Source: a virus
Virus record (IMG/VR): IMGVR_UViG_3300045988_030341
Coordinates: 1-32,023 of that record
DNA length: 32,023 bases
Direction: 5' to 3' (one strand)
In this document: piece after piece, positions 1 to 32,023 of the stretch
Layout: the number at the start of each line of letters is the position of its first letter
How positions within the stretch are numbered: position 1 is the stretch's first letter
The notes under the pieces: model-generated
The model's database searches: none
What the model was told of the DNA's origin: nothing
Seen by the model: the letters and a program-made list of their open reading frames with translations, nothing else
Made by a program: the position numbers and the translations under genes

Positions 1-99
1 AGGCGGATATATCCACCCCGAACTCGGGCAAACAAACAGCATGTCCCCGATGCGCGGAATAAGCTTCGTCAAGAACCTGATTATTTCCGGGCTTAAGTA
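1..99. repeat. Terminal direct repeat, left copy (identical to 31925..32023)
   Basis: Bases 1-99 (AGGCGGATATATCCACC...CCGGGCTTAAGTA) recur base-for-base at 31925-32023. This implies a circular, circularly permuted or terminally redundant genome with a 31,924-nt unit. Confidence 0.95.
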
Positions 100-2756: not shown

Positions 2757-5195
2757 ATGGATTTACGAAAAATGACTTTTAAAATTGCTACGGCGAGCAG
2801 CGCGAAGTCTACTTCATGGAAAAACCGCTCCTGCTCATGGGACGAGTTAGTCGAGAAGCTGGCAAGGGCGGTCGTTACGGATGAGACGTACCACGAGTTC
2901 ATAAGCGCGAGCAAAGCCGAGCAGGGTACAATCAAAGACGTAGGCGCATTCATGGGCGGCGAATTGTTCGGCAGCCGTAGAAACAAAAACAATGTAGGCG
3001 AGCGCTCTATTTTGGCGCTTGACATTGACTATGGGGAGAAGAATTTCCCCGAAATGTTCTACTCTGTCATTAATTGTGCATGTGTCATTCACGGAACGCA
3101 CAAGCACAACCCGAAAGCCGATACGCTCCGGTACCGCGTAATAATCCCGTTATCCGAGCCGGTGGACGGGGAGCAATACGAAGCTATCGCCCGAAAGGTC
3201 GCCGAGCTGACGGGTATCGACTTGTACGACCGCACCACCTTTCAACCCGAACGCTGCATGTTCTTTCCGTCGGTTTCCAAAGACGTAGAGTATGAGTTTA
3301 TAGATTACTCGGCATTCAACGAAAACCCTTTGGACGTTCAAAAGTATTTAGGTATGTACGACGATTGGAGCGATACGACCGAATGGGCATACCACAAGGA
3401 CGAGAAGGGAGAGGCCCGGACGCTCGCTAAAGAGCAACAAGACCCCACACTGAAAGAGGGTAATGTAGGCGACTTCTGCAGAGCCTACACCATCAGCGAG
3501 GCTATCGCGGAATACCTGTCGGACGTTTACAAACCTACCGGACGGGAAGATAGATGGACCTATACAGGCGGTTCTACTTCGGGCGGCATGATTACCTTCA
3601 ATGATATGTTTGCCTATTCATTCCATAACAACGACCCGATACAAGGTAACCACGTGTTTAACGCCTACGACCTGGTACGTGTACACAAGTTCGGAAAGAC
3701 GGACAAGGGCTCGGATAGAAAGAACTCCACCGAGGCTATGAACGAACTTGTAAACAAGGACCCGAAGGTAGCCGCGGCACGTGCCCGGATGCTGGCGGTC
3801 AAGGCCGGCGAGATAATGGACGATTTCGACGACGTTATAGAGGTAGAGGAGGCAACGGATGCCGATGCAGTGACAACGTACGAGGACGCAATGGCAAAAC
3901 TTGAAACGGATAAGCGCGGCGCGTATCTGCCATCTGCAAAGAATTTAGGTCTGATCATGAAGTATGACCCCAATTTAAAGGGGCTCATCGCCCGCGACCT
4001 GTTTAAAGAGCGCCGTGTTGTTACACGTGTCCCTCTATGGCGCGCAAAGGATAGTTCTTCGGACTTCCAGGATGTGGACTACTCGGGCGTACGTAAACAC
4101 ATTGAAGACGTTTACGGTATATCGAATAGTGTAAAGATTGACGATGCCATAGCGCTATCCGCCGAGATGAACTCATTCCACCCGGTGCAGGAATACCTGA
4201 CAAAATTAAAGTGGGACGGTATCGAAAGAGTCGACAAGGCTTTGATTCACATCATGGGTGCCGAGGATAACATATACACCCGAGAAGCATTCCGAATCAT
4301 GATGGTAGGAGCTGTCAAGCGTATCTTTCAAAAGGGCTGCAAGTTTGACAGCATGTTAGTGTTACAGTCCGAGCAGGGCGCGGGAAAAAGCACATTCATC
4401 CGAAAGCTGGGCAAGCAATGGTTCTCTGACAGCCTTTCGAGCATGGACGGTAAGGGAGCGTTTGAACAGTTGCAGGGTAACTGGATATTGGAGGTTGCCG
4501 AGTTGTCAGCAATGAGACGTTCGGAAGTAGAGGGTGTGAAAAACTTCATCTCCAAAACAGAAGACAGCTACAGACCGGCGTACGGACGTGTTACGAAGAA
4601 CTTTCCCCGGCAATGTATATTTATAGGTACGACAAACAGGGACGAATTCCTGAAAGACGATACGGGTGGCAGACGGTTTTTGCCCGTGAAGGTTAAGGCA
4701 AACGCCAACACGCATCTTATCTTTGAGAAGGGGTTCGACGAATATGTAGACCAGTTATGGGCGGAGGCAGTCCAGATGTATTTCCGCAAAGTAAGTACGT
4801 TGTTATCCCGTGAAGCCGAAGCAATAGCCGAGAGAGGACGCGAGGAACATTTTGAAGCAGACCCCCGTACCGCATCAGTAGAGGCGTATTTGAATATGCT
4901 CGTTCCGTCAGATTGGCGGCGCATGTTTTTGAATGAGCGACGCATGTACTTCAGGGAGTACGACGCTTCAAAGATAGACCCGGAAGATTTTACACTGGAA
5001 AAGATGGGCTTCGTGTCTACCATGCAAATCGCTACGGATGTGTTCGGGATGGAGGCAGGGCGCGTAACCGCCAAAGAGAGCAGGGAAATAGCTGCCATCA
5101 TGTCCAAGGTACCGGGGTGGAAACGTTCGGCAGATGCCAAGTCAGTTATGGGTCTCGGACGCGTACGAGGATATGAACGTATTGTTGACAAGTGA
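2757..5195 (+). CDS. Primase-polymerase / P-loop helicase fusion (VirE/D5-like)
   Basis: 812 aa. The N-terminal part has a DxD-type ILALDIDYG and HGTHKH, which is prim-pol-like. The C-terminal part has Walker A GAGKST (LVLQSEQGAGKSTFIRKLG) and a Walker B-like WILEVAEL. Confidence 0.85.
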   Translation: MDLRKMTFKIATASSAKSTSWKNRSCSWDELVEKLARAVVTDETYHEFISASKAEQGTIKDVGAFMGGELFGSRRNKNNVGERSILALDIDYGEKNFPEMFYSVINCACVIHGTHKHNPKADTLRYRVIIPLSEPVDGEQYEAIARKVAELTGIDLYDRTTFQPERCMFFPSVSKDVEYEFIDYSAFNENPLDVQKYLGMYDDWSDTTEWAYHKDEKGEARTLAKEQQDPTLKEGNVGDFCRAYTISEAIAEYLSDVYKPTGREDRWTYTGGSTSGGMITFNDMFAYSFHNNDPIQGNHVFNAYDLVRVHKFGKTDKGSDRKNSTEAMNELVNKDPKVAAARARMLAVKAGEIMDDFDDVIEVEEATDADAVTTYEDAMAKLETDKRGAYLPSAKNLGLIMKYDPNLKGLIARDLFKERRVVTRVPLWRAKDSSSDFQDVDYSGVRKHIEDVYGISNSVKIDDAIALSAEMNSFHPVQEYLTKLKWDGIERVDKALIHIMGAEDNIYTREAFRIMMVGAVKRIFQKGCKFDSMLVLQSEQGAGKSTFIRKLGKQWFSDSLSSMDGKGAFEQLQGNWILEVAELSAMRRSEVEGVKNFISKTEDSYRPAYGRVTKNFPRQCIFIGTTNRDEFLKDDTGGRRFLPVKVKANANTHLIFEKGFDEYVDQLWAEAVQMYFRKVSTLLSREAEAIAERGREEHFEADPRTASVEAYLNMLVPSDWRRMFLNERRMYFREYDASKIDPEDFTLEKMGFVSTMQIATDVFGMEAGRVTAKESREIAAIMSKVPGWKRSADAKSVMGLGRVRGYERIVDK

Positions 5196-5290
5196 TAACA
5201 GAGGGGTGTAAAAACCCCGAATGTTAACTGACTGTTAACAGAATAACTGAATGGGATTTATTTCTTAAATGGTGCTAACGTAATATACAG

Positions 5291-5330
5291 CCTGTCGTTA
5301 TTTGCCGTATATTTGTAATGTCAAAAGGAA
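5291..5330 (+). promoter_or_regulatory. Promoter cassette E1, copy 1 (-7 box TATATTTG at 5308-5315)
   Basis: CCTGTCGTTATTTGCCGTATATTTGTAATGTCAAAAGGAA is about 85% identical to 28024..28063 and contains a perfect TAnnTTTG. Confidence 0.6.
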
Positions 5331-5358
5331 ATAATAACAATTTAAAAAACTAAAGATT

Positions 5359-5769
5359 ATGAAAAAGTTAGTAGTGTTAGCAGTGTTAATTCTTACAAGT
5401 GTATCAATGTTCGGCCAAATCACGTCACAAGGTAAGCCGAACGTATTAAAGTCCTTCCGTATGGGCGTGTGCAAATTGGTTGATACCAACGGGTCAATAA
5501 CCATCGAGGCATTGACGCGCGAGACCCAAAGGTATACCATGATAGTCCGTTTAGGCACACCCGAGGAAGCGGCGGTAACGCTTGCGAGCCTTGCGGAATA
5601 CAAGCCCGGTAAAGGCGAGACGGTGAACCTGAACAACCCGAGCAACAACGAAGCGTATTATCAGAATCTTGGCGGCACATGGGTAATCACGGAGAAGTTA
5701 ACGGAGACTTTCAGCATTGCGGTTAGCCGCGGAGAGCTTAGAAAAATGGTCAAAGCGTTGGAAAATTAA
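5359..5769 (+). CDS. Small exported protein, unknown function
   Basis: N-terminal signal peptide MKKLVVLAVLILTSVSMFG followed by Q. It has its own promoter cassette and an A-rich leader (TTTAAAAAACTAAAGATTATG). Confidence 0.75.
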   Translation: MKKLVVLAVLILTSVSMFGQITSQGKPNVLKSFRMGVCKLVDTNGSITIEALTRETQRYTMIVRLGTPEEAAVTLASLAEYKPGKGETVNLNNPSNNEAYYQNLGGTWVITEKLTETFSIAVSRGELRKMVKALEN

Positions 5770-5810
5770 AGAAGTGTTTTTATTATATACAATTTTAAAA
5801 AGAAAAGATT

Positions 5811-5957
5811 ATGAAAAGCGGAAATTTTATCAGACCGGAATTCGTAGTTAAGGGTGAATTACAAGCGGAGTTTGTCAACATCGGACATGTATCGCGCATT
5901 ATGCACATGGAAGGCAAACCGTTTATCGGTATGCCGGGACAGACCTACACGCGCTGA
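5811..5957 (+). CDS. Small hypothetical protein (48 aa)
   Basis: My own translation (MKSGNFIRPEFVVKGELQAEF...), below the ORF-track cutoff. It carries the genome-typical leader TTTTAAAAAGAAAAGATTATGAAAAG. Confidence 0.45.
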   Translation: MKSGNFIRPEFVVKGELQAEFVNIGHVSRIMHMEGKPFIGMPGQTYTR

Positions 5958-7072: not shown

Positions 7073-7684
7073 ATGAAGGAAATAATAAGTGAAAAGGACT
7101 TGGAGCGCACGTTTAGCGAGAGCCTGAACAGAACAAAAAAGGTGTGGGTAATAAAACTATTGTCCACCTTTGTAAAGGGATTGCCCGACAGAATGGTAAT
7201 TTGCCAGGGCGGGTACGTAGGCTTTGCCGAGATAAAGACCACGGGCAGGAAACCAACCAAGATACAAACGCATATCCACGAGAAGTTAAGGGCACTCGGC
7301 TTCAAGGTATTTGTTATCGACGACTTGGAAAGCAGGGACATTGCGGTGAGTTTCTTCTTGGGAAACGTTAAGAAAACAGACAGCGTACCGAGAAAAGGGT
7401 TATCTCTGTATCATTCGATTAAAAAAAAAAAAACAGAAATCATGAAAAAGAGAAGTTTAAAAGAAGAAATCGAATACCGTTCAGGTATGTACTTTGGAAT
7501 CGGGTCCGGCGCGCCGTATGTCCGTGATGACAAGTTCGGTAATACCGAGGAAATTCCAAACCGGTTGCAACGCGATATTACCCGTGATGTCAATTTCCTT
7601 TCGCGTAAAACGCCGGGTTACGTATCGGATGAACAGGATTTCAAAAGCATTCGCGTATTCTATAAAACAAAATTAATGAAGTAA
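7073..7684 (+). CDS. VRR-NUC nuclease, read through an A13 tract into a second ORF as sequenced
   Basis: VRR-NUC signature GLPDRMVICQGGYVGFAEIKTTGRKPTKIQ. I prefer the ATG at 7073 over the TTG at 7055. There is no stop before 7684 only because the A-run at 7421-7433 has 13 residues. Confidence 0.8.
   Translation: MKEIISEKDLERTFSESLNRTKKVWVIKLLSTFVKGLPDRMVICQGGYVGFAEIKTTGRKPTKIQTHIHEKLRALGFKVFVIDDLESRDIAVSFFLGNVKKTDSVPRKGLSLYHSIKKKKTEIMKKRSLKEEIEYRSGMYFGIGSGAPYVRDDKFGNTEEIPNRLQRDITRDVNFLSRKTPGYVSDEQDFKSIRVFYKTKLMK
7421..7433 (+). repeat. A13 homopolymer inside the coding sequence
   Basis: 13 consecutive A, counted directly. It encodes KKKK plus the first base of a Thr codon. Confidence 0.95.
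7442..7684 (+). CDS. Possible independent 80-aa ORF downstream of VRR-NUC
   Basis: The ATG at 7442 is preceded by the A-rich leader and followed by AAAAAG, as at other starts in this genome. With one A fewer, the upstream gene would stop at TGA 7443-7445 in an ATGA overlap. Confidence 0.4.
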   Translation: MKKRSLKEEIEYRSGMYFGIGSGAPYVRDDKFGNTEEIPNRLQRDITRDVNFLSRKTPGYVSDEQDFKSIRVFYKTKLMK

Positions 7685-9250: not shown

Positions 9251-9396
9251 AAAAGCCGATAGCAGTTACCGCAGTCCTGCCCGCATTGGCAGGCCGCACC
9301 GTAGTACAGAACGCGGCGGACAGCATACAACGTAATTTCAAGTTACAGCAATCAGAGTACGGGCTATCGCTGAAAGATAGTCTAATGCTTAAATGA
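9247..9396 (+). CDS. Small hypothetical protein (49 aa)
   Basis: My own translation (MKKPIAVTAVLPALAGRTVVQN...). Its ATG overlaps the SNF2 stop as ATGA. Confidence 0.45.
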   Translation: MKKPIAVTAVLPALAGRTVVQNAADSIQRNFKLQQSEYGLSLKDSLMLK

Positions 9397-9397
9397 G

Positions 9398-9465
9398 GTT
9401 AACGAAAGAACCGGCATAACGGGAAAAGCGTTATATTTGTATCAACGATTTAAAAACAGAAGATT
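9398..9465 (+). promoter_or_regulatory. Promoter/leader cassette E2, copy a (-7 box TATATTTG at 9432-9439)
   Basis: GTTAACGAAAGAACCGG...GCGTTATATTTGTATCAACGATTTAAAAACAGAAGATT aligns with 30355..30426 and partly with 28205..28270. Confidence 0.55.
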
Positions 9466-9741
9466 ATGGAAAAGTATTCAAAAGCAGTCAGTGGGATGTA
9501 CTCACAGTCTGGAAAGGGAGAAGCCCGCCCGTCGGAAAAGTACACAGGACGGTCAGCTTACGGATGCGGTGAGAAATCGGAAGTGGCAGGATACCGGAAA
9601 GATACGGACGAAACATGGGCGCTGATAGCAGACGGCACTAAAATCAAGAGTTGGTGCAGGGGGCGGACAGACAACCAGTGCGTGGTATTTAAAAATTGTG
9701 AATGTTATTATTTCGTTGGTATTGGCGATCTGACAAATTAG
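9466..9741 (+). CDS. Hypothetical Cys-rich protein (91 aa)
   Basis: First ORF after cassette E2a. The C-terminal Cys cluster is SWCRGRTDNQCVVFKNCECYYF. Confidence 0.65.
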   Translation: MEKYSKAVSGMYSQSGKGEARPSEKYTGRSAYGCGEKSEVAGYRKDTDETWALIADGTKIKSWCRGRTDNQCVVFKNCECYYFVGIGDLTN

Positions 9742-10993: not shown

Positions 10994-11071
10994 TGAAAGC
11001 GGTTTGTCTATAGGAATTAGCAGTATGATAGCGCCCTCTACGAAAGCCTATTGGCAAACCGAATGATAGCG

Positions 11072-11117
11072 AAAAGCCCAAATCTGATTACAAAATGTCA
11101 GATTTGGGCTTTTGTTT
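11072..11117 (+). terminator. Intrinsic terminator closing the early block
   Basis: Perfect 16-bp stem: AAAAGCCCAAATCTGA (11072-11087) pairs with TCAGATTTGGGCTTTT (11098-11113). The loop is 10 nt and the tail is T-rich (TTTTGTTT). Confidence 0.85.
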
Positions 11118-11155
11118 ATAAACAGAAAAAAGGGCCTCAAAAATTAACAGAATTT

Positions 11156-11360
11156 AACCACAGTTACACAGTAAAAAATCGCTACTGTGTCGTTTTTTGT
11201 ACACTCTAACTCCTTATATTATAATATATTATATGTAATTACACAGATACACAGATAAAAAGGGGTTAGAGCATTATTTTGGAAAGAAGTGTATTTTGGA
11301 GGGTGCAAAATATACTATTTTCTATATTAAAGTTAAGAAAAAAAGGTCTGTGTCTGTGTA
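11156..11360 (+). repeat. Structured intergenic element, copy A (40-nt invariant core 11239..11278)
   Basis: Aligns block-by-block with 27704..27920. Blocks are AACCACAGTTACACAG; an 8-bp hairpin 11166-11173/11183-11190 followed by T6; an AT-rich spacer; the core TTACACAGATACACAGATAAAAAGGGGTTAGAGCATTATT; and the inverted partner GTCTGTGTCTGTGTA at 11346-11360. Confidence 0.85.
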
Positions 11361-11495
11361 AGTGCTTGTAACGTTCAGTGAGATAGGTAGTTAACGTGTT
11401 TTCGCCCAAAACCATGTAAACATAATTCATTTGTAAACTTTATTTGTAAGAAAAGGCCTAACTGCCCGTAGGTTGGTCTGGTACGATTTGTTGCC

Positions 11496-11503
11496 TACCT
11501 TTG
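11496..11503 (+). promoter_or_regulatory. Candidate late promoter -7 box TACCTTTG
   Basis: Perfect TAnnTTTG. A gTTG lies 20 nt upstream as a near -33 element, about 125 nt before the terminase small subunit ATG. Confidence 0.5.
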
Positions 11504-11629
11504 TGCCATGATTGAAAATAACCAAAGCAGTTGATACGAACTGCGGGGTATCGTCCGAATACTGCCCGCGCATCTCTTTAAGAGACCGTGAACGCACACA
11601 TGCGATACCCTTAATACCGACTAACAACT

Positions 11630-14434: not shown

Positions 14435-14466
14435 TTTGTTTTCTGACGGCTTGCTTCGTACTTTTG
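14435..14466 (+). promoter_or_regulatory. Consensus Bacteroidota promoter TTTG-N20-TACTTTTG inside the late block
   Basis: TTTG at 14435-14438, a 20-nt spacer, then TACTTTTG at 14459-14466 (TAnnTTTG). The ATG at 14491 is 24 nt downstream. Confidence 0.7.
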
Positions 14467-14490
14467 CGCACTGTTTAAAAACAAAAGAAC

Positions 14491-14835
14491 ATGAAAATCA
14501 TCAGAAACAACTTTATCCCGGTCAAGGGCTTCAAGGCTGTTAACCTGTTCGGCGTTCTCTTCGTACGTGGTAACGCGGTAATCAGCGAGAAGACGTTAAG
14601 ACACGAACACATTCACACGATGCAGATGCGGGAGATGCTGTACGTGCCGTTTTACTTGTGGTACGGTATTGAATACGTTATTCGCTTCTTTAGCTGGAGC
14701 TTCGAGAAGAAACCATGTGACCCGAACGACAAGCCATACGACCGTATGAGTTTTGAAAAGGAAGCCTACGGCAACGAGCACAACGTGGATTACCCGAAGA
14801 CAAGGAAACATTTCAGCTGGTTTAAGTATATTTAA
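14491..14835 (+). CDS. Small putative zinc metallopeptidase (HExxH)
   Basis: 114 aa. It has HEHIH (HExxH) after a beta-like segment NLFGVLFVRGNAVISEKTLR, a downstream FEKEAYGNEH with candidate third ligands, and an aromatic hydrophobic segment YVPFYLWYGIEYVIRFFSW. Confidence 0.6.
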   Translation: MKIIRNNFIPVKGFKAVNLFGVLFVRGNAVISEKTLRHEHIHTMQMREMLYVPFYLWYGIEYVIRFFSWSFEKKPCDPNDKPYDRMSFEKEAYGNEHNVDYPKTRKHFSWFKYI

Positions 14836-25632: not shown

Positions 25633-26064
25633 ATGGCATACCCGATAGCGTTGTTCCGCCAGTTGTTTGAGATAGCAACGGACGTCAAGGACAATAAAAT
25701 AGAGAAAGCGTTCTTCGAGGCAGACCTGCTCGATATAATGCCTCAGATTGGCAGCATGTATGAGGCCGTTCCGGGGCAATATATCCCGGACGGGTCTAAC
25801 TTCGCAGGACTTGAAAAGGTTATATGTTACTACGCTTTCGCGCGGTATCTGCAGATAGCGGACCAAAACAGTACGAGCACGGGTATGAAGATCCAGACCT
25901 ATGGCGGCTCGGTAGTCGTTCCCGATACAAGCAAGGTTAAAAGGTTTGAGGCCGAACGGGGCAAAGCAGACCTTTTTATAGAGCCGTTGATTTGCCGGAT
26001 GAAGGCGGACGGGTTTATAAAGACATGTAAGGTATCGAATACCCGTATAGGGTTAATCAAGTGA
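25633..26064 (+). CDS. Hypothetical late protein (143 aa), possible head-tail adaptor
   Basis: The ATG at 25633 lies 2 nt after the portal stop. The adaptor call rests only on position next to the portal. Confidence 0.6.
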   Translation: MAYPIALFRQLFEIATDVKDNKIEKAFFEADLLDIMPQIGSMYEAVPGQYIPDGSNFAGLEKVICYYAFARYLQIADQNSTSTGMKIQTYGGSVVVPDTSKVKRFEAERGKADLFIEPLICRMKADGFIKTCKVSNTRIGLIK

Positions 26065-26582
26065 TAGAACAATTGGAGACCTATTTCCGCACATTTTTTG
26101 CTGTTACCGTTCTGGCAGTAGTTACGGATATACGGGACTTTATATTTTTAGTGGTTATCGTTACCGCGTTGAACTGGCTGGCAGGCTATTTGGCAGACAG
26201 GGCGAAAGGAAAGCCCTACAGGCACGAAAAGACCATGCAGGCGGTCAAGGAGTTGTTTTTAACCACTGCGATTCTATTCTTTGTAGCCCTGACGTGTGAC
26301 ATGCTGGGGCCTGTGATAGATTACAAGCTTTTAGTAAAGGTGCTCACGGGTATGTTCCTTATTATATACGCGCGTAACATAACAGGAAACCTTAGGGTAG
26401 TGCAGCCGGGAAATGACTTTGTGAAGGTGTTAAACAGCATAGCAAATAGCAAGTATTTCCAACTTGAGAAAAAGATTAAGGATGGCGAACTTGATACACC
26501 CTTGGAAGAAAAGGAGAAAGAAGATGGCGGACTTGATATACCCTTAGAAGAAAAGGAGAAAGAAGATGGCGAACAGCAGTGA
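26061..26582 (+). CDS. Holin-like membrane protein
   Basis: Four hydrophobic segments (FFAVTVLAVV, FIFLVVIVTALNWLAGYL, LFLTTAILFFVALTC, LLVKVLTGMFLIIYA) and a charged repetitive C-terminus. It lies directly upstream of the endolysin. The start is GTG, overlapping the previous stop as GTGA. Confidence 0.6.
   Translation: MIEQLETYFRTFFAVTVLAVVTDIRDFIFLVVIVTALNWLAGYLADRAKGKPYRHEKTMQAVKELFLTTAILFFVALTCDMLGPVIDYKLLVKVLTGMFLIIYARNITGNLRVVQPGNDFVKVLNSIANSKYFQLEKKIKDGELDTPLEEKEKEDGGLDIPLEEKEKEDGEQQ
26481..26574 (+). repeat. 42-bp tandem repeat, about 2.2 copies
   Basis: GATGGCGAACTTGATACACCCTTGGAAGAAAAGGAGAAAGAA (26481-26522) repeats at 26523-26564 with 3 mismatches. A third partial copy, GATGGCGAAC, contains the endolysin ATG at 26566. 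Confidence 0.95.
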
Positions 26583-27652: not shown

Positions 27653-27703
27653 TCAGGGAATGGAGGGCTGTTAACAGTTCTTCATTTTTCGTTTACATTC
27701 GTT

Positions 27704-27920
27704 AACCACAGCTTACACAGATAAAAAGTGAGTCTGTGTAGGTCTCTGTGTAAAATAACCATCTCTATATTAGCTACTTATCTCTATTTACACAGATACA
27801 CAGATAAAAAGGGGTTAGAGCATTATTCTGGGGAAAATAGCATTTACCACTACGAAACGGACTGTAAAAACCACAATATTCGAAATGGAAGTATATGAAA
27901 ACATGTGTGTGTCTGTGTAC
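27704..27920 (+). repeat. Structured intergenic element, copy B (40-nt invariant core 27788..27827)
   Basis: Same block order as 11156..11360: AACCACAGCTTACACAG; an 8-bp hairpin 27714-27721/27733-27740; an AT-rich spacer; the identical 40-nt core; and an inverted partner within TGTGTGTGTCTGTGTA (27904-27919). Confidence 0.85.
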
Positions 27921-28023
27921 GTGTAAAATAAAACACTGATAAATAACACTTTAGCTCACATCGACTGTTTCTTTACATCTTTTCACTTTTGATTAATATT
28001 TATTAGCACAAAAAGAGATACAA

Positions 28024-28063
28024 CCTGTTAGTATTTGCCGTATATTTGCGATGTCAGAAGGAG
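28024..28063 (+). promoter_or_regulatory. Promoter cassette E1, copy 2 (-7 box TATATTTG at 28041-28048); candidate early promoter
   Basis: CCTGTTAGTATTTGCCGTATATTTGCGATGTCAGAAGGAG is about 85% identical to 5291..5330. It is the first promoter-like sequence after the late block. Confidence 0.6.
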
Positions 28064-28080
28064 ACAGGAAAAAGAACTAT

Positions 28081-28204: not shown

Positions 28205-28270
28205 GGCTTGCCGTGAACCTTTTAAAACCGCAAACGTTATTATACTATCAACGATTTAAAAAATAAAGCT
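28205..28270 (+). promoter_or_regulatory. Promoter/leader cassette E2, degenerate copy c
   Basis: Shares the 17-mer TATCAACGATTTAAAAA (28246-28262) with 9440-9456. The -7 region is degenerate (TATTATAC). Confidence 0.35.
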
Positions 28271-28570
28271 GTGGAAGAGCAAAAGCTTATTACCGAGGAA
28301 GAGCGGAAGTTTATTATCGGGGAAGTGAAAAAGCATCTGCAGGCGAGTGCGGGAAAGAACAAATACCAGGTTATCGACGCGGTGCGGGAAATGCCGACGT
28401 TCGAGGGGTTTATATTCCCTTACTATTCCCAAAGGCTGGACGGCACCCGATTCCCCGTAGATGTCGAAGAAATGTATATCAACTGTGACAAGTGGGACGG
28501 GTTCTATAACGAGACGGTGGCAAAGGTCGCGCAAGCCATTTTGGAAACAGACCGAACCGGAGAGGCATAA
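28271..28570 (+). CDS. Hypothetical early protein (99 aa)
   Basis: ORF with a GTG start directly after cassette E2c. Confidence 0.6.
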   Translation: MEEQKLITEEERKFIIGEVKKHLQASAGKNKYQVIDAVREMPTFEGFIFPYYSQRLDGTRFPVDVEEMYINCDKWDGFYNETVAKVAQAILETDRTGEA

Positions 28571-29170: not shown

Positions 29171-30349
29171 ATGAAAGTACAAGTAGACCACACAAGCAGG
29201 GCACACGCCCTGCTTTCCCCGAGCAGCTCGCATAGATGGTTTAACTGCACACCGTCCGCACGGTTGGAAGAACCGTATGAGAGCACAAGCAGCGCGGCAT
29301 CGGAAGAGGGAACGGTAGCGCACGAGTTGGCGGAGTATGCAATGGAAAAGTATTTGGCAGGGGAATACCTGCCGTTATTGGATGAATTGCCCGTACCCGA
29401 TGAGATACGCGACAACAAATACTACAGTTCGGAGATGGAGCACTACGTAACCGACTACGTTTGCTACGTGTGCGACATATACGAACTGGAGGAAGGCGCT
29501 AAAATGAGTATAGAACGGAAGTTCGACCTGACAACATACGTGCCCGAGTGTTTTGGCAGCTGTGACTGCGACATAGTGGGCGGGACAGTTCTAAACATCA
29601 TTGACCTGAAATACGGTAAGGGCGTACAAGTAGACGCTAACGGGAACAGCCAATTAATGATGTACGCTGTCGGGGTGCTTGATTCCTTGGAACCCTCGCA
29701 CCGCTCCAAGATTGAAAAGGTACGTATGCACATCGCGCAAGTACGGTTAGGCAATTACTCTGTATCTGAGATGTCCGCACGGGATTTGACCCACTGGGCG
29801 ATACACGTACTTCGCCCCACCGCGGAGAAGGCATGGGCGGGACAAGGAGAAACCAAAGTAGGCAGTCATTGCAAGTTCTGCAAGTTCAAAGCGCAATGCA
29901 GGGCACAGAAAGAGGCTTTAGTTAGCGAGTTCGAGACCCACAGGGACACCAAGGCGCTAACGCTTGACGAAATAGGCGATATATTAAGCAAGTCCGATAT
30001 GTTCACCGACTGGCTGGCATCGGTCAAGACTTTCGCAATGCAAGCCGCTACACGAGGCGAAAAGGTCAAGGGGTGGAAGCTTGTAGAGGGCAGGTCAGCA
30101 CGTGTCATAAACGACACGGAAACGGCTATAGAACGCCTGAAAGCTTTAGGTTTCTCAGCCGAGGACATAACTAACAGCAAATTGAAAGGTATCGGAGATC
30201 TGGAGCGGCTCGTAGGTAAGAAACGGCTCGCCGCAACTCTTGACGGCCTGATAGTAAAACCAAAGGGTCTGCCAACGTTAGCCCCGGAAAGCGATAAGAG
30301 GGAAGAATTAAGTCCTGCTATTGACGGCTTCGATGAATTAGATTCATAA
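29171..30349 (+). CDS. Cas4-like PD-(D/E)XK exonuclease (DUF2800-type)
   Basis: N-terminal SPSSSHRWFNCTPS (first Cys), nuclease core DCDIVGG...IIDLKYGKG, QLMMYA (QxxxY), and C-terminal CKFCKFKAQC (CX2CX5C), which gives the four-Cys Fe-S pattern of Cas4/AddB-type nucleases. Confidence 0.85.
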   Translation: MKVQVDHTSRAHALLSPSSSHRWFNCTPSARLEEPYESTSSAASEEGTVAHELAEYAMEKYLAGEYLPLLDELPVPDEIRDNKYYSSEMEHYVTDYVCYVCDIYELEEGAKMSIERKFDLTTYVPECFGSCDCDIVGGTVLNIIDLKYGKGVQVDANGNSQLMMYAVGVLDSLEPSHRSKIEKVRMHIAQVRLGNYSVSEMSARDLTHWAIHVLRPTAEKAWAGQGETKVGSHCKFCKFKAQCRAQKEALVSEFETHRDTKALTLDEIGDILSKSDMFTDWLASVKTFAMQAATRGEKVKGWKLVEGRSARVINDTETAIERLKALGFSAEDITNSKLKGIGDLERLVGKKRLAATLDGLIVKPKGLPTLAPESDKREELSPAIDGFDELDS

Positions 30350-30354
30350 AAGAA

Positions 30355-30426
30355 GTTAATGAAAGAACCGGCCGACCTGTCAGATAAAGCGTTATATTCG
30401 CATTATCAATTTAAAAACAAAACGAT
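30355..30426 (+). promoter_or_regulatory. Promoter/leader cassette E2, copy b (-7-like TATATTCG at 30393-30400)
   Basis: GTTAATGAAAGAACCGG...GCGTTATATTCGCATTATCAATTTAAAAACAAAACGAT aligns with 9398..9465. Confidence 0.45.
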
Positions 30427-30735
30427 ATGAAAAGTAACAACGGTATTTTAACAGAGAAAGAGATTCAGGCAAGAACAAAGTTTTGGAACAAAAAGCAATT
30501 CCGCATCTGGAGTAGAAAAGAACTTGAAAGAACCTCTACAGATATGCAAAAACTTTTGGCAGCCCTGAAGGAATTCAGTATGGACGGGATTAAAGCTGTT
30601 AGAAAGTCAGACGGATATAGCTTTGGAGTGCGCGGGAGAAATGACCCGAAGTATATCGTATGGTCGGCGTACCAAAGGGATTTGGATTACGCTATTTCAA
30701 TAGCACCAAAAGCTTTTAAAGTTAAACAAGGTTAA
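30427..30735 (+). CDS. Hypothetical early protein (102 aa)
   Basis: ORF directly after cassette E2b. Confidence 0.65.
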   Translation: MKSNNGILTEKEIQARTKFWNKKQFRIWSRKELERTSTDMQKLLAALKEFSMDGIKAVRKSDGYSFGVRGRNDPKYIVWSAYQRDLDYAISIAPKAFKVKQG

Positions 30736-30836: not shown

Positions 30837-31379
30837 ATGGCAAAAGTAATGATCAAGAACGTGAGATTGAGTTATGTCAGATTGTTTGAAGCGCAACAAG
30901 TCAACGGACAAGGAGAAGCAAGTTACAGTGTATGCTTATTGATTCCGAAGGATAGCCCGGAAGTTCCGAAGATCAAGGCAGCTATTGAAGCCGAGTTTTC
31001 AGATCTTAAGGCGCGATATCCGAAACTGAACGGTAAAGACCCGAAGGTATGGGCTAACCCGTTAAGAGACGGGGACGCCGAGAAAGACGGTGCCGAGTAT
31101 CAAGGTTGCTACTTCATCAACGCAAAGCGTAAAGAGAAGCAAGGCGCACCTATCGTAATCAACGGTAGAAAACAGTACATCACAGACCCGAACGAGGTTT
31201 ATAGCGGTTCTTGGGGCAACGTAGCCGTATCATTTTACCCTTATGAGTTTACCGGGAAGTACGGTATTGGCGCAGGCTTGAACGGTGTACAAAAGACCAA
31301 AGACGGCGAAAGACTGGACGGCGGCACAAGTATTGACGATTTCGACTTTGAAGACGAGAACGACGATTTATTCGACTGA
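30837..31379 (+). CDS. ssDNA-binding protein, T7 gp2.5-like (DUF2815-type)
   Basis: RLSYVRLFEAQ...YSVCLLIPKD...PLRDGD...YFINAK...GAGLNGVQK matches the DUF2815 pattern as I recall it. The acidic C-terminal tail DDFDFEDENDDLFD has a penultimate Phe. Confidence 0.8.
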   Translation: MAKVMIKNVRLSYVRLFEAQQVNGQGEASYSVCLLIPKDSPEVPKIKAAIEAEFSDLKARYPKLNGKDPKVWANPLRDGDAEKDGAEYQGCYFINAKRKEKQGAPIVINGRKQYITDPNEVYSGSWGNVAVSFYPYEFTGKYGIGAGLNGVQKTKDGERLDGGTSIDDFDFEDENDDLFD

Positions 31380-31442: not shown

Positions 31443-32023
31443 ATGGGGAAATACGATTCATACGTAAACGCGGAAGGTGTCAGAATTTCAAAGGTAACGG
31501 GAAAACCGTTGAAAAAGTATAATAAGGTCAACAAGGCATACTGGGCAGCTCGTGAAGGCAAAGCATTGGCAGGGGTACAGCAACCTATAGTTGAGGCAGA
31601 CCCCTTGATAGAGGAGCTTAAAAGCTATTACAACGAAGAAGAATTAAAGGGTATTATCAGTTTGAAGAAGGACGCGCCGCCCGTCGAACTGGTACGCATC
31701 GCACCGAAGAAAAAGACATCGCCCGACGAGGGAAACACTGGTTTTCTTATTGCATCAGACTGGCACGCCGACGAAGTAGTAAAAGCTTCTACAGTATTGG
31801 GCAAAAACGAGTATAACAAAGATATCGCGGAAAAGCGTATCACTAATTTCTTTGCAAATGCCGCCTATATGATTAAGAAAAAGCCGGTAGATAACTTGGT
31901 TATCGGTTTAATCGGCGATTTGACAGGCGGATATATCCACCCCGAACTCGGGCAAACAAACAGCATGTCCCCGATGCGCGGAATAAGCTTCGTCAAGAAC
32001 CTGATTATTTCCGGGCTTAAGTA
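31443..32023 (+). CDS. Calcineurin-like metallophosphoesterase, N-terminal part (continues at 2..619; 366 aa in total)
   Basis: ATG at 31443 with no stop before the window end. Motif I is SDWHAD (DxH) and motif II is GDLTGG. The last 99 nt are the terminal repeat. Confidence 0.85.
   Translation, partial: MGKYDSYVNAEGVRISKVTGKPLKKYNKVNKAYWAAREGKALAGVQQPIVEADPLIEELKSYYNEEELKGIISLKKDAPPVELVRIAPKKKTSPDEGNTGFLIASDWHADEVVKASTVLGKNEYNKDIAEKRITNFFANAAYMIKKKPVDNLVIGLIGDLTGGYIHPELGQTNSMSPMRGISFVKNLIISGLK
31925..32023. repeat. Terminal direct repeat, right copy (identical to 1..99)
   Basis: Direct comparison with bases 1-99 shows no mismatch. Confidence 0.95.

Follow-up and report, generated by a model that had tools for sequence, protein, structure and literature searches.

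The DNA analyzed here, referred to as the window, is the whole 32,023-nt stretch of the IMG/VR virus record IMGVR_UViG_3300045988_030341, and this study concerns two related non-coding elements that it carries, element A (11156-11361, + strand) and element B (27704-27920, + strand). According to a repeat comparison within the window, positions 1-99 are exactly repeated at 31925-32023. Once this 99-nt terminal overlap is counted a single time, the window amounts to the complete 31,924-bp genome, either circularly closed or with redundant ends, of a virulent Bacteroides siphophage whose genes all lie on the + strand. A module map was drawn from the annotation of cultured relatives and from family scans. 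The replication (early) module runs from about 28.0 kb across the record junction to 11.0 kb and encodes a DUF2800 exonuclease, a gp2.5-like single-stranded DNA-binding protein (SSB), a metallophosphatase exonuclease, PolA, a VapE-family helicase, a VRR-NUC nuclease and an SNF2 helicase, while the late side, extending to 27.65 kb, comprises terS, terL, the structural genes, the holin, the endolysin and one further open reading frame (ORF). Element A is located at the early-to-late boundary, between the replication module and terS and 270 nt upstream of the latter. At the late-to-early boundary, element B is flanked by the lysis genes on one side and by the first early genes on the other. The distance between them is 16.5 kb, and both are 6-7 kb away from the VapE helicase gene. 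As proposed by an earlier note made on this sequence, the 636-nt gap surrounding element A (10994-11629) has no credible ORF: it contains short ORFs only, of at most 79 amino acids (aa), and a 67-aa ORF annotated in the corresponding gap of the relative BU2-1 has no counterpart in the window. This gap matches 13 cultured Bacteroides uniformis/xylanisolvens siphophages with 77-86% identity, each of them at two places or more.

Each element consists of seven or eight boxes of 7 nt (TACACAG in the window), hereafter also called iterons, which are grouped in pairs of alternating orientation: two direct boxes, two inverted boxes, a 27-nt spacer, two direct boxes, a 93-nt A+T-rich segment opening with an invariant core, and two inverted boxes. 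In element A, the first pair is formed by a degenerate ACCACAG and a TACACAG (11157-11171, + strand), both varying with the box class in relatives, and is followed by the inverted CTGTGTC and a degenerate TTGTACA, which reads CTGTGCA in relatives (11185-11203, - strand). The AT-rich spacer (11213-11239; 27 nt, 93% A+T) is near-invariant among A copies and is bracketed by boxes 3-4 (-) and 5-6 (+), so that this candidate unwinding element separates oppositely oriented pairs. Boxes 5-6, TACACAG AT ACACAG, are tandem and direct (11240-11254, + strand). They are followed by a non-iteron core, ATAAAAAGGGGTTAGAGCATTATTTTGG (11255-11282, + strand), which is always on the gene strand and is kept regardless of the iteron class, by a further A+T-rich segment (11283-11345; the stretch 11255-11347 is 73% A+T), and finally by the inverted boxes 7-8, CTGTGTC and CTGTGTA (11348-11360, - strand). 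Element B has the same arrangement around a spacer of 76% A+T, its iterons being located at 27705 and 27714 (+), 27734 and 27746 (-), 27789 and 27797 (+), and 27913 (-). The hexamer ACACAG/CTGTGT is present 17 times in the genome, of which 12 within these two elements of about 210 nt totaling 442 nt (binomial P=2.9e-19), and 10 of the 12 genomic occurrences of TACACAG lie inside them.

The earlier note had described the elements as a succession of six blocks, of which blocks 1-4 and 6 were recovered as described. This includes the 8-bp inverted repeat 11166-11173/11183-11190 followed by T6, with its T-A versus A-T difference between the copies next to the core hexamer, as well as the 40-mer TTACACAGATACACAGATAAAAAGGGGTTAGAGCATTATT said to be identical in both copies. 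Indeed, this 40-mer, which contains two iterons and the beginning of the core, occurs exactly twice (11239-11278, and with the same letters at 27788-27827, + strand), against zero occurrences expected in shuffles. In contrast, block 5, considered to be without similarity between the copies, is 70% identical over 61 nt (11304-11364 versus 27863-27923), and the whole segment is homologous in relatives except for a 10-nt indel.

The conservation of the elements was then examined in IMG/VR loci fetched around terS (79 loci), around the ORF preceding B (59) and around the helicase (70). An element profile searched in the terS and B-side loci, in the cultured genomes and in the window gave 101 hits, 94 of them full length and 89 distinct. 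Using this close-group profile, nhmmer misses the relatives with a TerS identity of 77% or less, whose elements were found by A-versus-B comparison and k-mer counts. The earlier note had made its proposal depend on the presence of the element in related phages, and it is kept in all six cultured relatives that were fetched and, at one or both sites, in dozens of IMG/VR contigs. Both A and B are found in gene orientation in the window and in these six genomes, A remaining upstream of terS in the six of them and in most close IMG/VR relatives, and B following the lysis-module ORF. Five box classes were distinguished, namely TGCACAG (in most phages), TACACAG (in the window and about nine contigs), GACACAG, TGACCAG and TGTACAG, and the class differs between phages whose TerS are 94-98% identical. 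Within a genome, the box change spans both orientations and both copies, many elements keeping one or two minority boxes. This is illustrated by the variable positions of the four main boxes, which are identical in 58 of the 89 distinct elements, and by the majority class, which is equal in A and B for eight of the nine non-majority genomes sampled for both (window included), one of these eight, 024297, having a mixed B copy. Besides, the tandem-box segments of A resemble those of B more closely within a genome than between genomes (0.63 versus 0.47; 0 of 5000 permutations). What remains constant across box classes is the AT-rich spacer, together with the core (TAAAAAGGGGTAAAACATTATTTTGG) and with the CTATATTAAAGTTTAG block. 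The perfect conservation attributed to the 40-mer by the earlier note holds between A and B of the window, but this identity is particular to this genome and the boxes inside the 40-mer vary in relatives.

The core follows the motif GGTA[AT]AACA(C)TT(T)ATTTTGG, preceded by a run of A. It lies on the gene strand at both sites (11255-11282 and 27804-27831), and does so at both sites also in a lineage with 75% VapE identity that has different iterons; further positions are 2097-2117 in L053 and 3250-3271 in L140. It might serve in priming, in the binding of a host factor or as part of a promoter. A scan of 185,579 species-representative genomes with the core pattern returned a single match, in a contig of 15.8 kb (L215; CAZYSQ010000029.1) from a metagenome-assembled genome labeled Acholeplasmataceae. 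This contig, which carries the replication module and element A, is 81-88% identical to the window and is a piece of the same phage that was mis-binned, not a prophage. As judged from these genome searches, the element does not extend beyond this phage group. Such a distribution bears on the idea of a recombination substrate or mobile element, i.e., a MITE-like (miniature inverted-repeat transposable element) insertion or a boundary sequence promoting the exchange of early and late modules, which could account for the inverted termini (TTACACAG...CTGTGTAA), for the position of the copies exactly at module boundaries and for their homogenized appearance within genomes. However, all relatives have two copies only, which keep their sites and their orientation, the species-representative bacterial genomes give only the mis-binned copy, no transposase is present, and the co-variation between boxes and a phage protein described below would be unaccounted for. 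We consider this explanation the least credible of those discussed here.

The elements were also considered at the RNA level, since a structured RNA was the role placed first by the earlier note, on account of the ACACAG/CTGTGT stems. Such an RNA would be either cis-regulatory, for instance a nut/put-like antitermination site at the beginning of each operon, or a small non-coding RNA. Pairing was scored on the alignment of the 89 element sequences. In favor of an RNA, pairing reaches about 90% in helices 1 and 2 of the earlier note, 8 of whose 15 pairs show changes on both sides, element A folds better than its shuffles (z=-3.6), and the twin siting at two operon starts resembles that of nutL/nutR. 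However, helix 3 is paired in 54% of cells only. Overall, the proposed helices are 79.2% paired with a covariation score of 0.152, versus 96.6% and 0.166 for a mutually exclusive alternative in which box 2 pairs with box 8 and box 3 with box 5. Because incompatible pairings score at least equally, the covariation signal reflects shared box identity and not particular helices. Indeed, since the 7-nt boxes of a genome mostly have the same sequence, whatever their orientation and the copy they belong to, even mutually exclusive pairings take on a compensatory look. Moreover, direct-repeat boxes shift in parallel, the partners engaged in the minimum-energy fold are not the same in A and in B, the fold energy of B is unremarkable (z=-1.8), and the box sequence follows the DNA-binding wing of a protein, as detailed below. 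The 12-bp complementarity noticed earlier in copy A is present, but it is restricted to one of the 89 distinct elements, that of the window itself. The earlier note had recognized no known RNA family, and the Rfam 15 E-value scan of the whole window likewise gave no relevant match. The elements are probably not RNA, and a structured RNA appears to us very improbable. They share with lambda nutL/nutR and HK022 putL/putR the organization as twin conserved non-coding elements near the starts of two major transcription units. Unlike the phage elements, whose covariation is not helix-specific and follows a DNA-binding domain, nut and put act as RNA with helix-specific constraints. The only match of the Rfam scan was weak and unrelated to the elements. 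Located at 31043-31098, in the SSB gene, it corresponds to a sub-threshold c-di-GMP-I-GGC riboswitch (22.9 bits versus a gathering threshold of 59, E=0.27) and is almost certainly due to chance. Nothing relevant was found by a tRNA scan of the window.

The association between box class and phage proteins was examined across about 50 related phages. Genomes were labeled by their majority box and 18 phage proteins, representing 4536 alignment columns of which 2177 are variable, were ranked by permutation z-scores. The top 14 of the 2177 variable columns all belong to the VapE-family primase-helicase, columns 793, 794, 796 and 789 coming first (z=15.3 to 11.7). These columns fall within a 10-residue patch, GWKRSADAKS (aa 787-796; codons 5115-5144, + strand), which forms the beta-hairpin wing of the C-terminal domain and co-varies with the iteron class. 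The patch GW[KR]R[SA]A[DE]A[KR] is associated with the box TACACAG, GWQRAANGKT with TGCACAG, GWQRAANA[KR]P with GACACAG, GWQR[SA]AGR[KR]A with TGACCAG, and GWQR[SA]AKAK[SP] with TGTACAG or mixed boxes. Thus, residue 793 is D or E in 8/8 TACACAG phages, G in 3/3 TGACCAG phages and K in phages with TGTACAG boxes. It is N in 27 of the 31 TGCACAG-labeled phages, a class holding all 27 N's of the labeled set, and N at 793 together with A at 794 is also found in three GACACAG-type contigs outside this set. On a tree of aa 1-700 of VapE, the TACACAG phages occur in dispersed positions (8 Fitch changes), hence common descent does not explain the link between box and wing. No column diagnostic of the box class was found in TerS, TerL, g10598, g10297, g9748, the holin, the endolysin, g27062, g28271 or g28603, and this absence in the genes flanking the elements speaks against a reading of the boxes by TerS. 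Another candidate partner, g9466, showed a high raw mutual information that was lost under permutation z-scores, this protein being hypervariable and represented by few sequences. The 91-aa ORF at 9466-9741 is hypervariable among otherwise near-identical phages, is absent or replaced in many of them and has no family match.

This association also weighs on the proposal of a pac-related site, made by the earlier note from the position before terS. In such a pac region, the boxes would be TerS binding sites at which headful packaging starts. This would be in line with the 270-nt distance between element A and terS, with the several IMG/VR contigs that start in or just past A, and with the relative EMB2, whose genome is headful-packaged and circularly permuted according to PhageTerm, the site not being stated (PMC9584325). 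On the other hand, the equally conserved copy B is 16.5 kb away from terS, no TerS column follows the box class, the terS of L007, which is the closest to that of the window (98%), adjoins an element with TGCACAG boxes, and contig ends cluster at B as well, as expected from assembly breaks at a repeat. A pac function thus finds no support here and is, in our opinion, quite unlikely. Regarding contig ends, contigs of this phage group begin or end in or beside the twin elements far above chance, with ends inside an element for L008, L023, L024, L094 and L131, and starts 111-223 nt upstream of terS for L010, L018, L030, L039 and L046. Assembly breakage at the repeat is the simplest explanation for the ends located at the elements, while the cluster of starts upstream of terS, which is outside the repeat, could represent a pac-proximal end. 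In Bacteroides phage BU2-2 (L004; PQ571282.1), BLAST coordinates (1-140/34398-34537) suggest a terminal redundancy of about 140 nt inside its element B, which is probably an assembly overlap and not a physical end.

The protein that follows the box class is an 812-aa VapE-family primase-helicase (2757-5195, + strand), which we propose as the iteron-binding initiator. It matches PF05272 (VapE-like domain; E=5.6e-80) and, over aa 392-731, the structure 7PDS (E=1.9e-79), which is that of SaPI1 Rep1 bound to DNA (PMC9371898), SaPI standing for Staphylococcus aureus pathogenicity island. Its N-terminal 400 aa match PHROGs named primase or helicase-primase, and no primase match was found for this part in Pfam or PDB. 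In the AlphaFold model of aa 641-812, the predicted local distance difference test (pLDDT) is about 90 over the last ~110 residues, and the patch 787-796 forms a beta-hairpin after the last long helix. Since a word-indexed protein search with the C-terminal domain returned only 10 homologues, this structure model relies on a shallow alignment. The best structural match of the model is the C-terminal region of 7PDS (probability 1.0), and the next ones are weak and non-significant (E>=0.1), including winged-helix DNA-binding domains (IRF, FOXO, ORC).

Because the boxes and this small DNA-reading loop change together across relatives, the elements are most likely landing pads of the primase-helicase. 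By analogy with characterized initiators, we propose as the probable explanation that A and B are iteron-type replication-origin modules acting on double-stranded DNA and read by the Rep-like primase-helicase of the phage. The earlier note had listed a replication origin among its candidates, from the iteron-like hexamers in both orientations and the AT-rich stretch, and the co-variation of the boxes with the wing of a Rep-like helicase supports this candidate. According to this model, the C-terminal winged-helix domain of the VapE/Rep-type enzyme would bind the boxes. The enzyme would then assemble on the iterons, as do the SaPI Rep proteins and the alpha protein of P4, and would melt the A+T-rich DNA without a separate loader before starting replication. 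Being half a genome apart and at module boundaries, A and B would constitute two origins, or an origin and a cis-acting enhancer like P4 ori/crr. The model builds on the observed layout of the elements, their conservation, the concerted box changes, the co-variation of box and wing and the homology to a characterized iteron-binding initiator.

This proposal is in line with what is known of SaPI replication. SaPI Reps are self-loading initiator helicases whose C-terminal winged helix recognizes iterons of 5-6 nt, and their binding and melting do not need ATP (PMC9371898). In the SaPI ori, a central AT-rich region is surrounded by 6-12 iterons, at least two of which are found on each side, in opposite orientation (PMC9371898). 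Similarly, each phage element contains seven or eight boxes, iteron origins of this type being recognized from at least six short repeats (5-8 nt) clustered in non-coding DNA, and at least two boxes are present on each side of its AT-rich region, in opposed orientation. The genome also encodes a member of this helicase family whose C-terminal domain is of the winged-helix type, as indicated by PF05272, 7PDS and the model match. This VapE-domain protein is homologous to the SaPI initiator (Rep, also PriRep), its C-terminal model matches the Rep1 C-terminal region best, and the iterons would be matched to the C-terminal domain as in SaPI, the phage evidence for this being co-variation. Unlike SaPI, where a single copy is found immediately downstream of rep, the phage has two copies located 6-7 kb from the helicase gene, and no box cluster follows the VapE gene, which ends at 5195 (the two copies are at 11.2 kb and 27.7 kb). 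The phage iterons are also longer (7-8 nt) and are accompanied by an invariant non-iteron core and a second A+T-rich segment. Finally, the host element is a virulent Bacteroides siphophage and not a satellite, and binding is here predicted.

Several points weigh against an origin. In contrast to the SaPI ori, neither copy adjoins the helicase gene, and the GC skew is flat and positive throughout the window, although this is uninformative because all genes are on one strand. The boxes of an element are not always uniform, TGCACAG being found for instance with TACACAG or AACACAG, and one phage has TGTACAG in A and TGCACAG in B. The conserved non-iteron core, on its fixed strand, is not explained by the origin model. 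The association scan was made without the structural genes at 13.4-24.5 kb and the split exonuclease gene. Besides, binding, melting and initiation at A and B, as well as the reason for two copies, are what we infer by analogy. The co-variation shows a functional link to the C-terminal domain of the helicase and is silent on the purpose of binding.

This last point leads to the possibility of operator arrays, in which the C-terminal domain of the helicase, or another protein, would sit on the boxes mainly to control transcription, as an early/late switch acting instead of, or besides, an origin. The sequences surrounding the elements are compatible with such a function. A terminator-like perfect 16-bp inverted repeat (11072-11113, + strand) closes the early/replication operon directly before element A, and a terminator-like hairpin with a 15-pair stem and a T-run (27656-27689, + strand) closes the late/lysis operon directly before element B. 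TAnnTTTG is the Bacteroides -7 promoter motif. A sequence fitting it, TACCTTTG (11496-11503, + strand), is found 135 nt past element A and 127 nt before the ATG of terS, as a candidate late promoter that has a counterpart, TACTTTTG, upstream of terS in L053. The candidate first early promoter, TATATTTG (28041-28048, + strand), also has the -7 motif and is located 121 nt past element B. Each element is thus closely preceded by a terminator-like hairpin and followed, 120-135 nt further on, by a -7 motif heading the late (11496) or the early (28041) operon, and many iteron-binding initiators also autoregulate. Under such a switch, the early promoter downstream of B would be silenced and/or the late promoter downstream of A activated. 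However, the boxes are more than 100 nt away from the candidate promoters instead of overlying them, and opposed iteron pairs around a spacer of 93% A+T correspond to the layout of a Rep-type origin. Moreover, no helix-turn-helix or repressor-like regulator was found among the ~20 small ORFs in Pfam and PHROG scans, and VapE alone follows the box class among the 18 proteins scanned. We regard the operator arrays as rather unlikely. The candidate early promoter TATATTTG is a member of a family of 30-55-nt repeats found upstream of genes, mainly in the early/replication module (5285-5365, 5789-5817, 7394-7441, 9385-9472, 14450-14497, 28018-28073, 28231-28278 and 30342-30433). Most of them have a Bacteroides-type -7 box (TAnnTTTG) followed by an AAAAACA..AAG..ATG leader and they are probably phage promoters for the host RNA polymerase. 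A scan of the window with sigma-70 promoter and terminator consensus sequences, ill-suited to Bacteroides, remained at background level. On the late side, a 42-nt tandem duplication, 76% identical, was noticed at 26466-26549, within the gene 26061-26582 annotated as a holin in relatives.

Coming back to replication origins, the closest precedent for the twin arrangement would be found in P4, by analogy of layout. P4 depends on ori and crr, two iteron regions lying apart from each other, and likewise the phage has two separated cis elements with the same short repeats on one small genome. In P4 only ori fires, crr being an enhancer. The spacing is larger in the phage (15-16 kb versus 4.5 kb in P4) and the iterons have no sequence relation, those of P4 being TGTTCACC. 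The domain order of the alpha protein, which comprises a primase, a superfamily 3 (SF3) helicase and a C-terminal winged helix (PMC2777425), would also be shared, the primase part being recognized in the phage by PHROG names only. Unlike alpha, which has a DnaG-type primase, the N-terminal domain of the phage protein is assigned by these PHROG family names alone. Comparison can also be made with plasmid iteron origins. In R6K, the gamma ori works with distant alpha and beta sites looped by the pi protein. As in such plasmids, initiator-specific repeats lie in the phage beside an AT-rich unwinding element, and the initiator could bridge distant clusters. Plasmid Rep is nevertheless not a helicase and needs the host DnaA/DnaB/DnaC, whereas the proposed binder of the phage is the helicase itself.

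More distant relatives, whose helicases are 58-75% identical, carry lineage-specific repeat arrays upstream of terS, each with a distinct wing. The wing GWERSRQR is accompanied by about 10 copies of TGGCACAG upstream of terS, a second site being also present after the lysis module, the wing ..RS[RK]RR by (C)GGAACAC in two lineages, the wing ..VRR by GTGACAAA in two lineages, and the wing ..TRR by TACAAAAG and TGTAACA. Their repeats and wings are consistent with these lineages keeping the iteron-wing principle with other boxes and other wings.

No description of this element, or of iterons or origins of Bacteroides phages, was found in the papers searched on these phages or by literature search, and the replication origins of Bacteroides phages are essentially unannotated. 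If the proposed model is true, one or two origins would be placed, and their initiator named, for a prevalent gut phage family proposed as 'Bacteroiduroviridae'. The natural variation yields a specificity map relating the wing residues 789-796 to iteron positions 1-4. The twin elements also account for the tendency of metagenomic assemblies of these phages to be interrupted at two fixed positions. Besides, a caution emerges for the search of RNA motifs, as inverted-repeat arrays of protein sites that co-evolve with the protein give strong, non-specific compensatory signals. Among phages with helicases 93-96% identical, repeated switches would have affected the DNA-reading hairpin together with all of the ~15 iterons of the two loci. 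This raises the idea, which we put forward as a tentative and somewhat doubtful extension, that wing-iteron pairs are natural replicon specificity classes diversifying within one gut phage species complex, with both elements being true origins firing on the same molecule. Competition between co-infecting phages, hijacking satellites or host defense targeting the origin would be possible drivers of such switching. If this held true, these phages would provide a compact protein-DNA recognition code for a self-loading helicase, as well as a virulent phage with two origins.

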